A stretch of DNA of 64,000 nucleotides from an uncultured Chloroflexia bacterium (GCA_963728205.1 CAVSIV010000006.1:960001-1024000), one strand, 5' to 3'; shown: positions 8,737-15,091, counted from the stretch's first letter. Notes: generated by a model not told the origin, from the letters alone. Made by a program: numbers and translations.

Positions 8737-9107
8737 TGCAGGGCCCCCTTCTTCCAGGCGTATCCGAGGCCCGCGGCGAGAATCAGGATGAACACGACCA
8801 TCGCCCAGTACGCCATCGCGCCGATCCCCACGAAGGACAGCGCCCACGGGAAGATGAAGACGGCTTCGACGTCGAAGATGATGAAGAGGATCGCGTACAG
8901 GTAGAACCGCATCCCGATGTTCGTGCTGGCACGCCGAATCGGCAGCATGCCGCACTCGTAGGTCGTGCCCTTCTCGCGCTCCTTCGAGAACGGAGCGAGC
9001 AGCCGCGACCCGACCAGGGCCGAGATGACGAGCACGAATCCAATACAGGTAGCGATCAGGACCGGCAGGTAGTTGCTGTAGAGCTGGCTGATCTGCTGAG
9101 GTTCCAC
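8727..9107 (-). CDS. nuoA: NADH-quinone oxidoreductase subunit A
   Basis: [30 protein letters not shown]; AGGAG RBS. Confidence 0.96.
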
Positions 9108-9198
9108 CAGTCTCCTGCTCTCACCGCGGTGCGGTTTGGCAAGTGATCCGAGGCACGATCAGGCGTCGCGCGGGACGCGCACCGGGCAGTTCGGCCTG

Positions 9199-9227
9199 AC
9201 CGTAGCAACGGTCCATTTCAGTGTCAA
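9199..9227 (-). promoter_or_regulatory. sigma70-type promoter of nuo operon
   Basis: TTGACA-N17-TACGGT with extended -10 TG. Confidence 0.65.
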
Positions 9228-9300
9228 CGAACGGCGAATCGGCCTGAACAGTACCGCGCCGCGCGCCTACGCGAACCTGAGTGCGCGCGCGGCGCCGGCG

Positions 9301-11979
9301 TTACCCCAGCTCCACGAGGCTCGCGCGCAGCCCGTCGAGCCGCCCCCGCGCCGTCGCGAGCCGCTCCTCCTCCTTCGCCACGACCGCGGCCGGCGCCTTC
9401 GCGCGGAACTGCTCGTTCCCGAGCTTCCGCTGCTGGCGCTCCACCTCGCCCTCGGCCTCGGCGATCTGCTTCCGCAGCCGCTCGCGCTCGACGTCGAGGT
9501 CGAACAGCCCGGCCATCGGCAGCACGACGCTGCCGACATCGAGCACGCTCGTCACGACCCCCTCGCTCGGCGTCTCGTCCGCCGACGCCACCACGTGCAG
9601 CGGACGTGCGCGCGCCAGCTGCTCGATCGCCGTCGCGAGCGCGGCCGCCGTGCCCGCGGCTTCGCCGCCCACCACGTACGCCTCCACCCATCGTCCCGCG
9701 TCGACGCGCTTCTCGGCGCGCACGTTGCGGATCGCGCGCACGAAGTCCTGCACCGCCGCCAGCTGGCGCTCCGCCTCCTCGTCCCGCACGCCTGCGCCGG
9801 GCCGCGGGTAGCGCGCCACGATCAGCGCGGTCGCACCCTCCGGATCCGGGTGCACCACCGTGAGCCGCTGCCAGATCTCCTCGGTGACGAAGGGGAGGAA
9901 CGGGTGCAGCAGCCGCAGGATCTGGTCGAGCACGTGCGCCAGCACGGGCAGCGGCGTGCGGTCCCCGGCGCGCACGCGCACCTTCGCCAGCTCGATGTAC
10001 CAGTCCGCGAACTCGTCCCAGAAGAAGTCGCGCGCCTGGCGCAGCGCCTCGGCCAGCTCGAACTTGCCGAGCAGCGCGTCGACGTCGCCGACCACACGCT
10101 CCAGCCGCGAGAGGATCCACCGGTCCTCGATCGCGCCTGTCTTGGCCGGTAACGACAGGTCATCGCCGTCCTCGACCATCATGATCGCGAACCGCGAGGC
10201 GTTCCACAGCTTGTTCGCCAGGTTGCGGCCCGCCTCGAGCCGGTCGTCGGTGAGACGCTGGTCGTTGCCCGGCGACGTCCCGGAGACGAGCGCGTAGCGC
10301 AGCGCGTCGGTGCCGAAGCGCTCCACGAGCGACAGCGGGTCGACGACGTTGCCCTTCGACTTCGACATCTTCTGGCCGTCGGGGGCGCGCACCAGGCCGT
10401 GCAGGTAGACGTGCTCGAACGGCACGACGCCGTTCATGTTGTAGAGCGACAGCATGATCATCCGGGCCACCCAGAAGAAGATGATGTCGTAGCCGGTCTC
10501 CATCACCTGCGTCGGGTAGTAACGGCGCAGCCACGCCGTCTCGTCCGGCCACCCCAGCGTCGAGTGCGGCCACAGCCCCGACGAGAACCACGTGTCGAGC
10601 GTGTCCTCGTCCTGCCGCAGCCCCTCGGCGCCGCAGTGCGCGCACGCCGTCGGGTCTTCGATCGCGACCGTGATCTCGTCGCAGGCGTCGCAGTACCAGA
10701 CCGGGATGCGGTGTCCCCACCAGATCTGGCGGCTGATGCACCAGTCGCGGATGTGCTCCATCCACTGCATGTACGTGCGCTCGAAGCGCTGCGGCACGAA
10801 CTGGATGCGGCCGTCGCGCACGGCCTCGATCGCCGGCCGCGCCAGCGCGTCGGTCTTCACCCACCACTGCAGCGAGATGATCGGCTCGACGATCGTGCCC
10901 GACCGCTGGCAGTGGCCGACCGAGTGCGTGTACGGCTCGACGCGCTCCAGGAGGCCGCGTGCCTCGAGGTCCGCGACGATCTTCGTGCGCGCCTCGAAGC
11001 GCGGCAGACCGCCGTACGGCTCCGCGGCGTCGTTCAGCGTCCCGTCGAGGTTCATGATGCTGATGATCGGCAGCCCGTGACGCTCGCCGATCTCGAAGTC
11101 GGTGGGGTCGTGGCCGGGCGTCACCTTCAGCGCCCCCGAGCCCGCCGCGATGTCGACCGCCGCGTCCGGGATGATCGGGATGGACCGACCGTTCGTGGGC
11201 ACGGCCACGCGCTTGCCGATCATGCCCGCGTAGCGCGGATCCTCCGGGTTCACGGCCACGGCCGTGTCGGCGGGGATCGTCTCCGGGCGCGTCGTCGCGA
11301 TCACGATGTGCTCGGCCGTCTCGTCACCGGCGTCGTCGAGCACCGGGTAGCGCACGTGCCAGAACGAGCCGGGCTCGTCGTCGTACTCGACCTCGAGGTC
11401 GCTGAGCGCCGTGCGGCAGTCGATGCACCAGTTGATCAGCCGCTCCCCGCGGTAGATCAGGCCGTCGTCGTAGAGGTGCTTGAAGGTCGTGCGCACGGAC
11501 CGTTCGCGGTGCGCGTCCATCGTGAACGCCTCGGCGCTCCAGTCCGCCGACGCGCCGAGCCGGCGGTGCTGCTGCGCGATGCGCGAACGCGACCGCCCGA
11601 CGAACTGCCATACGCGCTCGAGGAACGCGTCGCGGCCGATCTCGTGGCGCGTCAGCCCCTCGCGCGCGAGGTCGCGCTCGACGAGCGCGTTCACCGCGAT
11701 CGCGGCGTGGTCGACGCCCGGCAGCCACAGCGTGTCGTCGCCGCGCATGCGGTGCCAGCGCGTCAGCGCGTCCTCGATCGACACCGTGAGCCCGTGTCCG
11801 AGGTGCAGTTCACCGGTGAGGTTCGGCGGCGGCATGATGATGGTGAACGTCGGCCCGGAGCCGCTCGGCTTGAAGAAGCCGCTCTGCTCCCACCACTCGT
11901 AGAGGTGCTCCTCGACGTCGCGCGGCGTGTACGCCGTCGTCATCTCGCGCGGATCGATGTCGGCTTCGGGGGCGGTCAT
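9301..11979 (-). CDS. valS: valine--tRNA ligase
   Basis: PPPNLTGELHLGH, DWCISRQIWWGHRIP, KMSKSKGN, C-terminal coiled coil; start could be 12000, 11979 or 11943. Confidence 0.97.
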   Translation of the reverse strand: MTAPEADIDPREMTTAYTPRDVEEHLYEWWEQSGFFKPSGSGPTFTIIMPPPNLTGELHLGHGLTVSIEDALTRWHRMRGDDTLWLPGVDHAAIAVNALVERDLAREGLTRHEIGRDAFLERVWQFVGRSRSRIAQQHRRLGASADWSAEAFTMDAHRERSVRTTFKHLYDDGLIYRGERLINWCIDCRTALSDLEVEYDDEPGSFWHVRYPVLDDAGDETAEHIVIATTRPETIPADTAVAVNPEDPRYAGMIGKRVAVPTNGRSIPIIPDAAVDIAAGSGALKVTPGHDPTDFEIGERHGLPIISIMNLDGTLNDAAEPYGGLPRFEARTKIVADLEARGLLERVEPYTHSVGHCQRSGTIVEPIISLQWWVKTDALARPAIEAVRDGRIQFVPQRFERTYMQWMEHIRDWCISRQIWWGHRIPVWYCDACDEITVAIEDPTACAHCGAEGLRQDEDTLDTWFSSGLWPHSTLGWPDETAWLRRYYPTQVMETGYDIIFFWVARMIMLSLYNMNGVVPFEHVYLHGLVRAPDGQKMSKSKGNVVDPLSLVERFGTDALRYALVSGTSPGNDQRLTDDRLEAGRNLANKLWNASRFAIMMVEDGDDLSLPAKTGAIEDRWILSRLERVVGDVDALLGKFELAEALRQARDFFWDEFADWYIELAKVRVRAGDRTPLPVLAHVLDQILRLLHPFLPFVTEEIWQRLTVVHPDPEGATALIVARYPRPGAGVRDEEAERQLAAVQDFVRAIRNVRAEKRVDAGRWVEAYVVGGEAAGTAAALATAIEQLARARPLHVVASADETPSEGVVTSVLDVGSVVLPMAGLFDLDVERERLRKQIAEAEGEVERQQRKLGNEQFRAKAPAAVVAKEEERLATARGRLDGLRASLVELG

Positions 11980-12056
11980 CGGCGGCCTCGTGTCGTGCAT
12001 GTCGCATGGTGGCGCGCGGCGGCGGAGCGGTGTCGTGCCCCGCCGACGCGGGACAC

Positions 12057-12082
12057 GAAAACGCCCCGCTGAGCGGGGCGTT
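12057..12082 (-). terminator. attenuator/terminator hairpin in valS leader
   Basis: AACGCCCCGC-TCA-GCGGGGCGTT with the 3' end reading GCGUUUUC. Confidence 0.75.
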
Positions 12083-12132
12083 CGCGGCAGCGTTGAGTCG
12101 TCGTCCCGCGGGGGGGCGCGTCCTCGCTGCCG

Positions 12133-12165
12133 CTACCGTACTACGACGCGTGCGCTGATTCGCAT
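12133..12165 (-). CDS. Val-rich leader peptide MRISARVVVR
   Basis: ATG CGA ATC AGC GCA CGC GTC GTA GTA CGG TAG; three tandem Val codons between a promoter and a terminator upstream of valS. Confidence 0.75.
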   Translation of the reverse strand: MRISARVVVR

Positions 12166-12174
12166 CAGACGGCG

Positions 12175-12213
12175 ATCGTAGACGGGGCGATCCGGCGGGT
12201 CAACGCGACGCCT
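12175..12213 (-). promoter_or_regulatory. sigma70 promoter of valS leader
   Basis: TTGACC-N17-TACGAT, 9 nt before leader ATG. Confidence 0.7.
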
Positions 12214-12224
12214 CGGTGCGTCGT

Positions 12225-12704
12225 CTAGAACGGCAGCATGCGACGCAGGCGGCCGGGCCGGCTCGCGCGCGTCGCGCGCTCGCGCGCGCGCTTCGCGCCG
12301 CGCTCGATCTCGCGCCGGCTCGGCATCACGTGCTCGACGCGGTCGCGCAGCGCGTCGACGTCGACGCCCTCCAGCGACGAGGCTGCCTCGGCCGCCGCCG
12401 CCAGCTGCCGGCGCATCGCCTCGGCCGCGCGCTCGCGCCGCGACGGGCGCCGTCGCGACCGCGCGAAGAGCCAGCCGGCGATGCCGAGCGCGAGCAGCGC
12501 GGCGCCGCCGACGATCCACTTCATCGACGATCCGCGGCTGCCGGCGTCCTCCGCATCCCAGGTGTACGCGGAGGTTGGCTGCCCGTACGGCGGCTGGGCG
12601 CCCGGCTCACGCTCGTGCATCGCCAGGGCCTCGTCCGCCTGCGGCCCCTCGCCGGCCGCGTCCTCGTTCGGGACCGTGGGGCGGGATATGAACTGGTCGA
12701 CCAT
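12225..12704 (-). CDS. hypothetical single-pass membrane protein
   Basis: GGAGGT RBS before MVDQFISRP; one hydrophobic helix WIVGGAALLALGIAGWLF followed by a basic stretch. Confidence 0.65.
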   Translation of the reverse strand: MVDQFISRPTVPNEDAAGEGPQADEALAMHEREPGAQPPYGQPTSAYTWDAEDAGSRGSSMKWIVGGAALLALGIAGWLFARSRRRPSRRERAAEAMRRQLAAAAEAASSLEGVDVDALRDRVEHVMPSRREIERGAKRARERATRASRPGRLRRMLPF

Positions 12705-12865
12705 CGGGACCTCCCTTCGGCGAAACCGACTTCCAACGTACCACCCGCGCGTTCGCCCTCCGCGCGGAGTCGGTTCACCGCAGGCCGGGCAGGCCGTAGG
12801 CTCCGGCCTGCTCCGCACGGGCGGTCGCCCGGGCCGGACGGCAGCGCGAGCGAGGGGGAACGCAC

Positions 12866-13393
12866 ATGCTGACCAGGGGACTCGGCTACCCGGCGGTCAT
12901 CGTCCGCAACATGGAGGAGTCCCTCGACTTCTACCGCAAGCTCGGGCTGCAGTTCCTCTACCTCGAACCCAACCGCGACGACCCGGAATCGGTGCAGGCG
13001 CTCCTCGGCGCCGGCAACGGCACGTTCCTCCTGCTCATCGGCCCGGTCGATCCGAACCTCAAGCTCGCCGACGCGTCGCTCGGCGTCGGCTCGATGCAGT
13101 ACCTCACGTTCCAGGTGGACGGCGGCGCGATGGACCGCATGTTCGACGAGATGTCGCGCGCCGGTCTGCATGGCTCCGAGCAGATCGAGCGCGGCTACGA
13201 GCGGCTCGTGTTCATGGAGGATCCGAACGGCACGCTGATCCTGCTCACGGCCTGGGTGACCGAACCGCCGGCGGGCATGGACCGCGCGCGCATCCTCGCG
13301 CGCGCCGCCGCGTTCCGCGACGCCGACGGCACGCCGTTCGTCGAGGACTCCCACGTACGGCGCGCGATCGCGGAGCTGCAGGCGACGAGCTGA
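12866..13393 (+). CDS. VOC/glyoxalase family protein
   Basis: VRNMEESLDFYRKLGL...VFMEDPNGTLILL VOC signature; RBS. Confidence 0.85.
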   Translation: MLTRGLGYPAVIVRNMEESLDFYRKLGLQFLYLEPNRDDPESVQALLGAGNGTFLLLIGPVDPNLKLADASLGVGSMQYLTFQVDGGAMDRMFDEMSRAGLHGSEQIERGYERLVFMEDPNGTLILLTAWVTEPPAGMDRARILARAAAFRDADGTPFVEDSHVRRAIAELQATS

Positions 13394-13406
13394 GGAGCGC
13401 GCCCGG

Positions 13407-13766
13407 TCAGAAAGCGAACTTCACGGCCTGGCCGGCATCGAGCATCACCTGCGCGAAGTCCCGGCCATCGGGCAGGGTGATCGACCCGTCGAACCGGCCG
13501 CCGTACTTGTCCCATCCGTGACTCACTACCCGCACCCGCGCGCCGACCGGCAGCAGGTTCTGCGCGAACGCGAGCGACGCTCTGCCTGCCTTCGTGCGCA
13601 GCTCCGGCGCGTTGATGCCGAACACGCGGCATGCCAGGCGTGGGCGGTTATCGAGGTCGTGGCTCGAGATCAGGTGATCGAACCCGAGGTCGATCGACAG
13701 GTAGACGGTGTCGCCGTCGTGCACGAGATCGACACGCGCGGGGAATGGACCGAAGGTTTGCGGCAT
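13407..13766 (-). CDS. thermonuclease (SNase) family protein
   Basis: VHDGDT, RVFGINAPE, DKYGGRF motifs. Confidence 0.85.
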   Translation of the reverse strand: MPQTFGPFPARVDLVHDGDTVYLSIDLGFDHLISSHDLDNRPRLACRVFGINAPELRTKAGRASLAFAQNLLPVGARVRVVSHGWDKYGGRFDGSITLPDGRDFAQVMLDAGQAVKFAF

Positions 13767-13906
13767 CGAGGGTTCGCCGTTTCGCTGCGCTCCGGCCCTC
13801 GCCCTGTTCGCGCGGCATTATGCCACGCGCCCGCTCGGGGCCCCCTCGTGCCCGCGGCGGGCGCGCTCCTCGGATCGGACCTCACGCCCGGGCGGCGCGC
13901 GGCGGC

Positions 13907-15091
13907 CTAGCCCCCGATGCTCGCGCAGGCGTCGGTGCTCATCGCCACCGAATTCCCCACCACTGCCCAGTGGCCGTCGCGCGAGAAGAAGCCGGGCGCG
14001 GGCAGCACCGTCGTGTACTGCAGCGTCGACGGGTCGAGGACCGCGCGCGCCGCGCCGAGGTTGCCGCCGAGCGCGAGGCCCGGCACGCCCGCCGGCGACG
14101 GCGCCAGCGCCGTGGTGAGCGCGTCGAGCGTGCCGGCGGCGGGATCGTAGAGCAGCACGCGCGCCGCCGCGTCGGCGCACGCCGCGCGGTCGCCGATCGC
14201 GATGCGGCCGTCGTCGAGCGCGACCACGGGCGGCATGGCGCGCGGCGGCGCGTGCACGGTTGCCACGAAGATGGCGGCCGTCGCACCCGCGTCGATCCGG
14301 TAGACGTTGGCCGTCCCGCTCGAGTTGCGCAGCACCGCGAGCACCGACGGCCGGCCGTCGATCGCGAACACGAGCGACGCGTCGAACGCCAGTGCGGGAC
14401 TGCCTTCGTCGGGCACGAGCTGCCACGTGTAGAGCAGCGGGGCCTTCTTGCTGGCCGCGCCGCGCGCGAGCACGAAACCCGCGGGGTAGTGGGTGCGCAT
14501 CGCGTCGGTCGCGGGCTCGTCCGCCGCGGCCTTGCCCGTGGCGAGGCTGACGTCGTGCTGCGCGAGCTTGCCGGCGGCGAGTGTCGCCAGCCGCAGCGTG
14601 CCGCCGGGGCCGAAGCTCGCGGCCGCGGCGTCGCCGTACGACGTGCGACGCATCGTCGCGAGGTCGAGCACCCACACCTGGGAGTTCGCGACCTTGTTCG
14701 TCCCGGCGTCCGGGCCAACCTGCCACGTGAGGTGGGTGCCGTCGCTGCTGAACGGCATGCCAAAGCCGATCGCGCCGTCGCCGAGGTTCGTGGCCTTTCC
14801 GGTGCGCAGGTCGTAGAGCATCACCGAGTGGCCGTCCCACGCCGGGAACGTCGACGCCGGCGGCGCGGCCAGCGCGCGCGTGGTCGCGACGGTCGTGTCG
14901 GCGGGTTGGATCGAGAGGCCGGTCACGTCCTCCACCGGGCCGCTGTAGGCAGGCGCGTCCTGCGCGAGCGCGTACGGGGTCGGCGTTCCCGGGCCCGCAA
15001 GCGTGGCCGTGGCGGATGGTCGGCCGGAGCCGCATGCGGCAAGCAGGACCACGAGGGCAGCGGCCGGTGCCGCGAGGATGATTCGTCGCAT
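13907..15091 (-). CDS. hypothetical lipoprotein (possible beta-propeller)
   Basis: MRRIILAAPAAALVVLLAAC lipobox; beta-rich repeats with SSDG/SRDG turns. Confidence 0.7.
   Translation of the reverse strand: MRRIILAAPAAALVVLLAACGSGRPSATATLAGPGTPTPYALAQDAPAYSGPVEDVTGLSIQPADTTVATTRALAAPPASTFPAWDGHSVMLYDLRTGKATNLGDGAIGFGMPFSSDGTHLTWQVGPDAGTNKVANSQVWVLDLATMRRTSYGDAAAASFGPGGTLRLATLAAGKLAQHDVSLATGKAAADEPATDAMRTHYPAGFVLARGAASKKAPLLYTWQLVPDEGSPALAFDASLVFAIDGRPSVLAVLRNSSGTANVYRIDAGATAAIFVATVHAPPRAMPPVVALDDGRIAIGDRAACADAAARVLLYDPAAGTLDALTTALAPSPAGVPGLALGGNLGAARAVLDPSTLQYTTVLPAPGFFSRDGHWAVVGNSVAMSTDACASIGG

Follow-up and report, generated by a model that had tools for sequence, protein, structure and literature searches.

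Upstream of valS, the valine--tRNA ligase gene of an uncultured Chloroflexia bacterium (GCA_963728205.1), lies a compact leader on the minus strand of a 64,000-nucleotide stretch of DNA (CAVSIV010000006.1:960001-1024000; hereafter the window, from whose first letter coordinates are counted unless a contig is named). In the direction of transcription, the leader consists of a promoter, a near-leaderless upstream open reading frame (uORF) with tandem valine codons, a 9-bp helix that begins at the uORF stop codon (P1), and an intrinsic terminator, which is followed by valS (Table 1). We propose that this leader is probably a ribosome-mediated, valine-sensing transcription attenuator of valS. An initial annotation, made from the sequence alone, had reached a similar interpretation that included a specific antiterminator. 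Our analysis supports this interpretation in part: a valine-sensing attenuator is likely, and the specific antiterminator is rejected.

The promoter, the uORF, P1, the internal segment GCGGGACG, the terminator and valS all lie on the minus strand exactly where the initial annotation had placed them, base for base. The uORF reads ATG CGA ATC AGC GCA CGC GTC GTA GTA CGG TAG. Additional AA/TT pairs lengthen the terminator stem to 10 bp, formed by AACGCCCCGC (12082-12073) and GCGGGGCGTT (12069-12060). The predicted fold of the 126-nt leader has an energy of -63.6 kcal/mol (z -2.8, equalled by 2 of 200 shuffles) and contains both P1 and the terminator, which share no bases. A consensus scan of positions 9000-15000 returned one sigma-70-like site, the leader promoter (shuffle mean 0.3), and also picked up the leader terminator. 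The downstream gene has a frame that is open from 12000, and its product was identified as valine--tRNA ligase (NCBIfam, 1118.9 bits, cut-off 704).

A 128-codon open frame (12133..12519) runs in frame with the uORF, which might have been its tail. This candidate was ruled out by a G+C content at third codon positions (GC3) of 0.63; the upstream gene at 12225..12818 has a GC3 of 0.90. Because the shared 128-codon frame has the wrong codon-position G+C, the uORF is taken to stand alone.

Table 1. Features of the valS leader and the adjoining gene in window coordinates.
Feature	Position	Strand	Basis or remark
-35 hexamer TTGACC	12198..12203	-	sequence and promoter consensus scan
-10 hexamer TACGAT	12175..12180	-	17-nt spacer from -35; promoter consensus scan
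near-leaderless uORF, 10 codons and TAG, MRISARVVVR	12133..12165	-	ATG 12165-12163, 9 nt past -10; stop 12135-12133
regulatory valine codons (proposed) GTC GTA GTA	12139..12147	-	sequence
P1 5' arm GCGGCAGCG	12125..12133	-	first base is the G of the TAG stop; covaries with the 3' arm
P1 interior, 32 nt, with variable inner hairpin P2	12093..12124	-	fold prediction; includes GCGGGACG
internal segment GCGGGACG of the initial annotation	12109-12102	-	sequence
P1 3' arm CGCTGCCGC	12084..12092	-	9-bp helix with GCGGCAGCG
spacer GAA, 3 nt, from P1 to terminator	12081..12083	-	sequence
intrinsic terminator: CGCCCCGC (12080-12073), loop TCA, GCGGGGCG (12069-12062), TTTT (12061-12058)	12058..12080	-	
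valS, valine--tRNA ligase	9301..11979	-	ATG 11979-11977 shared with relatives; GAGG 11989-11986, 6 nt ahead

Conservation of the leader and its valine codons

Using valyl-tRNA synthetase (ValRS), valS loci were taken from 40 relatives, the 17 closest of which share 69-84% ValRS identity. All 17 of these loci have the same layout: a -10 hexamer is followed 6-11 nt on by the start codon of a short open reading frame (ORF) that ends in valine codons, and beyond its stop come a helix and then a GCCCCGC/GCGGGGC hairpin with its T run. Among the 80 matches listed in a separate ValRS search, nearly all of them from Firmicutes, the nearest named record was a Dehalococcoidia MAG with 69% identity, in support of the placement in Chloroflexota made by the initial annotation. 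A covariance model (R1), whose structure comprises P1 and the terminator, was built from the 17 aligned leaders. Within the genome studied here, R1 found a single match, at the valS leader (E 3.9e-17). At E<=0.01 it matched 77 of 99 genomes of the Dehalococcoidia family, among them 43 of the 48 that are at least 90% complete; the order-level search covers the same 99 genomes. The valine-codon uORF and the stems, whose conservation the initial annotation had put forward for checking, and the terminator thus recur in 17 of 21 genera. Three of the genera without a match have small genomes (0.7-1.9 Mb, with few candidates at first look), and the fourth is genus g5. An even sample across the class gave matches in 7 of 151 genomes, all from the leader's own family, and none in the 144 genomes from 62 other families.

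One locus of genus g5 (L018, genome G007) has no valine leader. By eye, a TTGACC/TACCAT promoter is followed there by a long leaderless ORF that extends to the valS start with an ATGA overlap, an arrangement that suggests translational coupling in place of attenuation.

To describe the element family, 74 leaders were re-aligned to R1; they were chosen by having matches, and the counts below characterize the family and not its frequency. In all 74, valS lies downstream on the same strand. A TANNNT hexamer followed 4-12 nt on by an ATG or GTG that opens a 7-30-codon ORF with valine codons is present in 72; the remaining two have CACCAT or CACGAT and, by eye, also an ORF with a valine run. When the frame was not presupposed, a candidate start was in frame with the valine run in 68 of 73 distinct leaders (1.05 candidates each), compared with about one third expected by chance. 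The distance from start to valine run changes in steps of three, such that start, run and stop stay in one frame. The N-terminal peptide differs among uORFs in both sequence and length, and the valine run alone is kept. Most uORFs are leaderless or nearly so, since the start codon follows the -10 hexamer after 6-9 nt in 58 of 63 distinct ones. The -10 hexamer itself reads TACCAT in 36, TACGAT in 14 and another TANNNT in 13 of the 63 distinct leaders, and a TTGAC-like -35 is found in most of the relatives' upstream regions. Among the relatives compared, the layout recurs far more than chance would allow.

P1 covaries. Eleven of its pairs are changed on both sides, observed values that none of 500 shuffles reached; at one of these pairs, 21 sequences have A-U, 20 have G-C and 5 have G-U. 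Overall, 87% of cells are paired, against 40-55% with the 3' partners slid. These structure statistics come from related genomes in an alignment fitted to R1 and thus lean towards structure; even so, compensatory changes in P1 are evident from the raw sequences. The base of P1 is nearly always GCGGC/GCCGC, and its interior, 17-40 nt long and variable in sequence, folds beyond shuffles (mean z -2.32; 54 of 73 leaders below -1.64). The last valine codon lies 4-7 nt from P1 in 73 of 73 leaders, despite a stop codon that is found 6-33 nt past the last valine codon and may fall before P1, within P1 or in the inner loop. The spacer between P1 and the terminator is likewise confined to 1-4 nt in all 73. 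Because both spacings and the sequence of the P1 base are constrained, we regard P1 as the working part of the leader.

The terminator stem is almost invariant, with a compensated CGCCCCGG/CCGGGGCG in three sequences, and in 72 of 73 leaders the 8 nt that follow it include at least four T, in runs that are short and interrupted. The terminator motif occurs 16 times in the genome studied here, on both strands, and weak R1 matches to the terminator only are found elsewhere in related genomes, by eye after coding-looking sequence. Since the motif recurs elsewhere, its conservation may reflect a general terminator preference.

The choice of valine codon is strongly biased. As the initial annotation held, GTA is rare: it makes up 792 of 55,685 valine codons (1.4%) in 1,406 long ORFs of high GC3 from this genome, which has a G+C content of 72.5% and, in addition to tRNA-Val genes with GAC and CAC anticodons, only one with TAC. 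In the relatives' uORFs (63 distinct), GTA accounts for 205 of 226 valine codons, and the longest valine run is at least three in 50 of the 63. Some subfamilies interrupt the run as GTA-GCN-GTA, or use GTC or GTG. The stop codon is TAG in 55 of the 63 distinct valS uORFs and, by eye, in 15 of 15 leaders of ilvB (described below); among long ORFs of the genome, 640 are closed by TAG, 643 by TGA and 123 by TAA. In many leaders the G of TAG opens P1, and TAG is kept even where it lies inside the helix.

The distance from terminator to valS has a median of 49 nt (range 25-181 nt). With so variable a distance, Shine-Dalgarno sequestration or another form of translational control of valS was considered a less promising reading. 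A separate valS promoter is unlikely because this gap is short and none was seen in 9000-15000; the leader with its terminator is thus supported as the only promoter-proximal route into valS. In a metatranscriptome run containing 5% of the sampled words, three contigs aligned with 11400-12800 at 90-95% similarity; they derive from a relative, cover just a part of valS (11428-11793) and so carry no information on the leader.

Adjoining the T run of the terminator is a second 10-bp hairpin, CGTGTCCCGC-GTCG-GCGGGGCACG (12057-12034, minus strand), whose arms resemble those of the terminator. It gives rise to weak microRNA-like matches in Rfam, and it was not seen by eye at the matching place in two upstream regions from the same genus (L002 and L003). 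The product of the gene at 12225-12818 (minus strand) is 197 residues long, contains a single hydrophobic stretch and has a tail rich in Arg and Ala; NCBIfam gave no match for it at E<=1e-5. Gene content upstream of the valS leader varies between relatives.

A parallel leader at ilvB and the distribution of T-boxes

Two weaker R1 matches within one genus correspond to a leader of ilvB. In the genome studied here (contig C6, ~1501900-1502150, minus strand), the ilvB leader has a leaderless ORF, MTRTHILTGATSQTAILRGLDLLVLVLT, which ends in ...GLDLLVLVLT, uses GTA for valine and stops at TAG. One codon separates the Leu/Val run from the TAG, at which a long helix starts; a second hairpin, GCCCGCGTGCCGGGC, follows this helix after a 3-nt spacer. 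A leaderless ORF with a Leu/Val run, followed by a helix and then a hairpin, precedes ilvB in 15 of 15 loci of the family, including AT-rich genera without the valS leader. The loop of the second hairpin is conserved, and several genomes have no T run after it. The order therefore appears to use one leader design at two genes, with putative regulatory codons that follow the regulated gene. We regard this match between codons and gene in two separate leaders as the best reason to see the codons as the sensor.

A genome-wide scan for the layout (TANNNT, a start, a 5-35-codon ORF, a perfect GC hairpin and a T run) returned two matches, the valS leader and C6:1452424; the ilvB leader was missed because its hairpins are imperfect. 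The match at C6:1452424, on the plus strand, contains a 34-codon near-leaderless ORF, MQRTTCATPFALARTADAHGRIVVSSDPGAEAPA.

In Gram-positive lineages and in Chloroflexota, control by a T-box is the textbook arrangement for aminoacyl-tRNA synthetase genes. The T-box (RF00230) performs the same task as that proposed here, sensing tRNA charging and controlling a terminator before valS. It senses by RNA-tRNA pairing, whereas the valS leader would do so through a translating ribosome, and the leader has neither T-box sequence nor an Rfam match. As the initial annotation had predicted, the Rfam T-box scan was negative at the valS leader: no T-box was among the 10 weak matches obtained in 11700-12500 at E up to 10 (best E 0.37), and no Rfam cis-regulatory leader came near its gathering score, the best being asX2 with 19.3 bits vs 70. 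A T-box search of the whole genome gave two sub-threshold matches elsewhere and none at valS.

T-boxes are found at the same genes in more distant relatives. Among 12 such valS loci, drawn from eight other families of the class and from AT-rich or divergent members of the leader's own family, three have a T-box directly upstream of valS (L025, L026 and L027; Rfam 79-87 bits, E 1e-15 to 2e-17), and the other nine have neither a T-box nor a valine leader. A T-box also precedes ilvB in two of three class-level relatives scanned (L212, 104.7 bits; L213, 92.4 bits). The leader ORF and terminator thus stand where other lineages have a T-box, and the contrast that the initial annotation drew with the T-box-controlled valS of Firmicutes is a fair one. 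In this order, a leader peptide appears to have taken the place of a T-box at both valS and ilvB.

Elsewhere in the genome studied here, a T-box match of 44.1 bits (E 2.8e-8), below the 93-bit cut-off, lies at C1:283660-283934 on the plus strand, and the gene directly after it was recognized by eye from its translation as anthranilate synthase component I (TrpE-like). An ileS-like leader on contig C6 (~1038330-1038420, plus strand) contains an GGGTGGTACCGCGG motif, a GC hairpin and a T run that together have the look of a T-box core by eye; it gave no Rfam T-box match at E up to 5. These T-box-like leaders at ileS and anthranilate synthase genes match the three T-boxes listed for Dehalococcoides (ileS, trpE and trpB-like) in the relevant part of an earlier survey (PMC2494555).

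A proposed mechanism and its alternatives

According to our proposal, the transcript would begin at the uORF start codon or no more than ~3 nt from it, and its short ORF would be translated. With ample Val-tRNA(UAC), the ribosome would pass the rare GTA codons and reach TAG, where its mRNA channel would hold the 5' arm of P1; with P1 blocked, the terminator 3 nt downstream would fold and transcription would stop before valS. When charged tRNA-Val is scarce, from too little valine or too little ValRS activity, the ribosome would stall on the valine codons, 4-7 nt upstream of P1. P1 would then form, and more polymerases would read into valS. Like the initial annotation, we infer read-through into valS upon Val-tRNA shortage, and likewise translation of the uORF, a gain in read-through when the ribosome stalls, and an action of P1 on the terminator.

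The direction of the P1 effect is taken from the ilvB leader, which makes sense only if stalling gives read-through, such that an intact P1 would correspond to read-through and an open P1 to termination. The geometry is interpreted along the lines of the Mycobacterium tuberculosis ilvB1 model (PMC13236596; see below). As for how P1 might act, our preferred guess is that this GC-rich helix, 1-4 nt away, hinders closing of the lowest terminator pairs inside RNA polymerase. These pairs would have to close deep in the RNA exit channel, and an adjoining helix may have to melt for them to do so; P1 and terminator would then overlap in space and not in sequence. More tentative, and in our view rather doubtful, is the wider proposal that valS and ilvB in this order share an antiterminator-free design, in which an abutting ribosome-gated helix decides termination sterically or by stacking and replaces ancestral T-boxes.

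Folding with the bases covered by a modelled ribosome identifies P1 as the ribosome-sensitive helix. With a 9-nt reach, P1 pairing, taken as the fraction of the 3' arm bound to the 5' arm, was 0.83 when the A site was on the first valine codon (above 0.5 in 73 of 73 leaders) and 0.72 when it was on the last (above 0.5 in 72 of 73). With the A site on the stop and a reach of 9-12 nt, P1 pairing fell to 0.00-0.02 and exceeded 0.5 in none of the 73.

Several results weigh against the proposed attenuator. Most directly, no antiterminator sharing bases with the terminator, an element that the classical scheme requires, was found in four tests. Minimum free energy folds in which ribosome-covered bases were barred from pairing, a check suggested by the initial annotation, preserved the terminator in 16 of 17 leaders when the ribosome sat at the last valine codon and in 14 of 17 when it sat at the stop. 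In a search from the valine codons to the P1 3' arm (73 leaders), the best duplex with the terminator 5' arm averaged -11.5 kcal/mol compared with -11.6 kcal/mol for dinucleotide shuffles (z 0.03; 1 of 73 below -1.64); by comparison, the mean for the terminator stem is -17.2 kcal/mol. Before its 3' arm is made, the terminator 5' arm was paired at 0.39, 0.46 and 0.56 in three ribosome states, with no switch. It was also unpaired in every state in consensus folds of four subfamilies (7, 8, 16 and 6 leaders; 36 leaders in smaller clusters were left out). Furthermore, when the reach of a ribosome on the last valine codon was set to 12 nt, P1 pairing dropped to 0.35 and exceeded 0.5 in 4 of 73 leaders; since this opens much of P1, the sign of its effect is argued from biological logic. 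P1 and the terminator coexist in free RNA, so the predicted folds do not bear out the proposed effect of P1 on termination. In the portion of the literature on actinobacterial attenuators that treats it, mutations of the candidate regulatory codons in the Streptomyces coelicolor ilvB leader were without effect (PMC1262725), a result which implies that leader ORFs with terminators are not always classical attenuators. Lastly, the counts make the evidence look stronger than it is, since the genomes behind them are related and thus not independent.

Two specific antiterminator candidates were examined and set aside. The pairing of GCGGGACG with the terminator 5' arm, on which the initial annotation relied, exists in this genome and is not conserved; shuffles reach the same strength, and in view of the four negative tests we consider it a one-sequence feature at chance level. 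The commonest best partner of the terminator 5' arm was the P1 5' arm (7 bp with a bulge, ~-12.6 kcal/mol), and shuffled arms paired equally well (-9.65 vs -9.7).

Three other readings of the leader were weighed. P1 could have the opposite role, in which P1 stacked on the terminator is required for efficient termination, and a ribosome on the last valine codons, reaching 0-5 nt into the P1 base, loosens P1 and gives read-through; after normal translation the ribosome would leave quickly and P1 would re-form. Such a scheme needs no antiterminator, and it fits the 1-4-nt spacer between P1 and terminator, the short and interrupted T runs, and the loss of P1 pairing at a 12-nt reach. It would also explain the tight spacing between valine codons and P1 better than the attenuator proposed above, as a constant 4-7 nt despite a variable stop is predicted if the stalled ribosome must contact P1. 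That spacing could equally be inherited from a common ancestor, however, and a ribosome at the stop removes P1 wholly, so that release would have to come before the polymerase reaches the terminator. An intrinsic terminator that depends on a helix upstream of it has, to our knowledge, no precedent, and we consider this opposite role unlikely.

A leader that does not sense amino acids at all, and instead sets a fixed valS level, stabilizes the 5' end of the mRNA or yields a small RNA upon termination, would be in keeping with the four negative tests and with the S. coelicolor ilvB mutations. It fails, however, to explain the use of the rarest valine codon in 91% of cases, the codons that match the gene in both the valS and the ilvB leaders, and the fixed spacings on either side of P1, and is thus very unlikely. 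The valine run might instead act as RNA, with GUAGUAGUA forming a protein site or a tRNA site similar to a T-box specifier and the ORF being incidental. The run is indeed conserved at the nucleotide level (GTA in 205 of 226), and GUA is the codon read by tRNA-Val(UAC). We nevertheless consider an RNA motif highly improbable, given that start, run and stop hold one frame while the distance from start to run moves by threes, that some subfamilies interrupt the run as GTA-GCN-GTA or include GTC or GTG, that ilvB leaders have mixed Leu/Val codons at the same position, and that the leader has no T-box sequence and no Rfam T-box match at E up to 10.

Relation to known attenuators

In Escherichia coli, the pheST operon is preceded by the pheM leader peptide, with tandem cognate codons and then a terminator, and the antiterminator and terminator hairpins of pheM overlap. 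The valS leader is similar in having cognate tandem codons and a terminator before an aminoacyl-tRNA synthetase gene. It differs in amino acid, gene and phylum, in its leaderless uORF, and in that no overlapping antiterminator was found at valS.

The initial annotation knew of no description of such an attenuator for valS. For valS itself this stands: no leader-peptide attenuator of valS, and none in Chloroflexota, was found in the full-text literature, and supplementary prediction lists might hold one. For synthetase genes in general, attenuators were already in print, with pheST as the gamma-proteobacterial example in the sections at hand of PMC1262725, alongside predictions for leuS and trpS2 in Streptomyces (Seliverstov et al. 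2005, PMC1262725). As described there, the Streptomyces leaders resemble the valS leader in their high-G+C hosts, synthetase genes, cognate-codon leader ORFs and terminators; going by that description only, they differ in having classical antiterminator hairpins and in belonging to Actinobacteria.

Excerpts of a study of the Mycobacterium tuberculosis ilvB1 attenuator describe LVVI regulatory codons that include GUA, an alanine mutation that abolished induction, and a ribosome at the stop that masks a helix which forms upon stalling (PMC13236596). Going by the text of that study, the ilvB1 and valS leaders both have a uORF with branched-chain amino acid codons including GUA (translated in ilvB1) and a Rho-independent terminator. 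In contrast to valS, ilvB1 belongs to a biosynthetic operon, and its predicted anti-terminator is mutually exclusive with the terminator. Also in mycobacteria, leaderless polycysteine short ORFs are reported to attenuate downstream genes (Canestrari et al. 2020; 10.1101/834739; also PMC13402693, PMC13236596). These ORFs share with the valS uORF a leaderless start and a run of codons for one amino acid. They differ in acting by translation attenuation (PMC13236596), in responding to cysteine and in controlling biosynthetic genes, and the accounts of them consulted here describe no intrinsic terminator.

Set against the classical scheme, the valS leader has a leader ORF with its own start, cognate tandem codons and a predicted intrinsic terminator, and an overlapping antiterminator was not found. 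It would work like a leader-peptide attenuator, minus that overlapping antiterminator. A fixed geometry of this kind raises the question of whether a merely abutting helix can control a terminator, which bears on an old puzzle of actinobacterial ilvB leaders, where, in the words of the passage concerned, "other attenuator elements are missing" (PMC1262725). Given the specificity of R1, the element is a candidate for registration as a cis-regulatory family. That the rarest valine codon of the genome, served by one tRNA gene, is used almost exclusively would offer a sharp example of codon choice tuned to sensing. Finally, the apparent exchange of an RNA-tRNA sensor for a ribosome sensor at valS and ilvB, with the same input and output, would represent a clean natural case of regulatory turnover.

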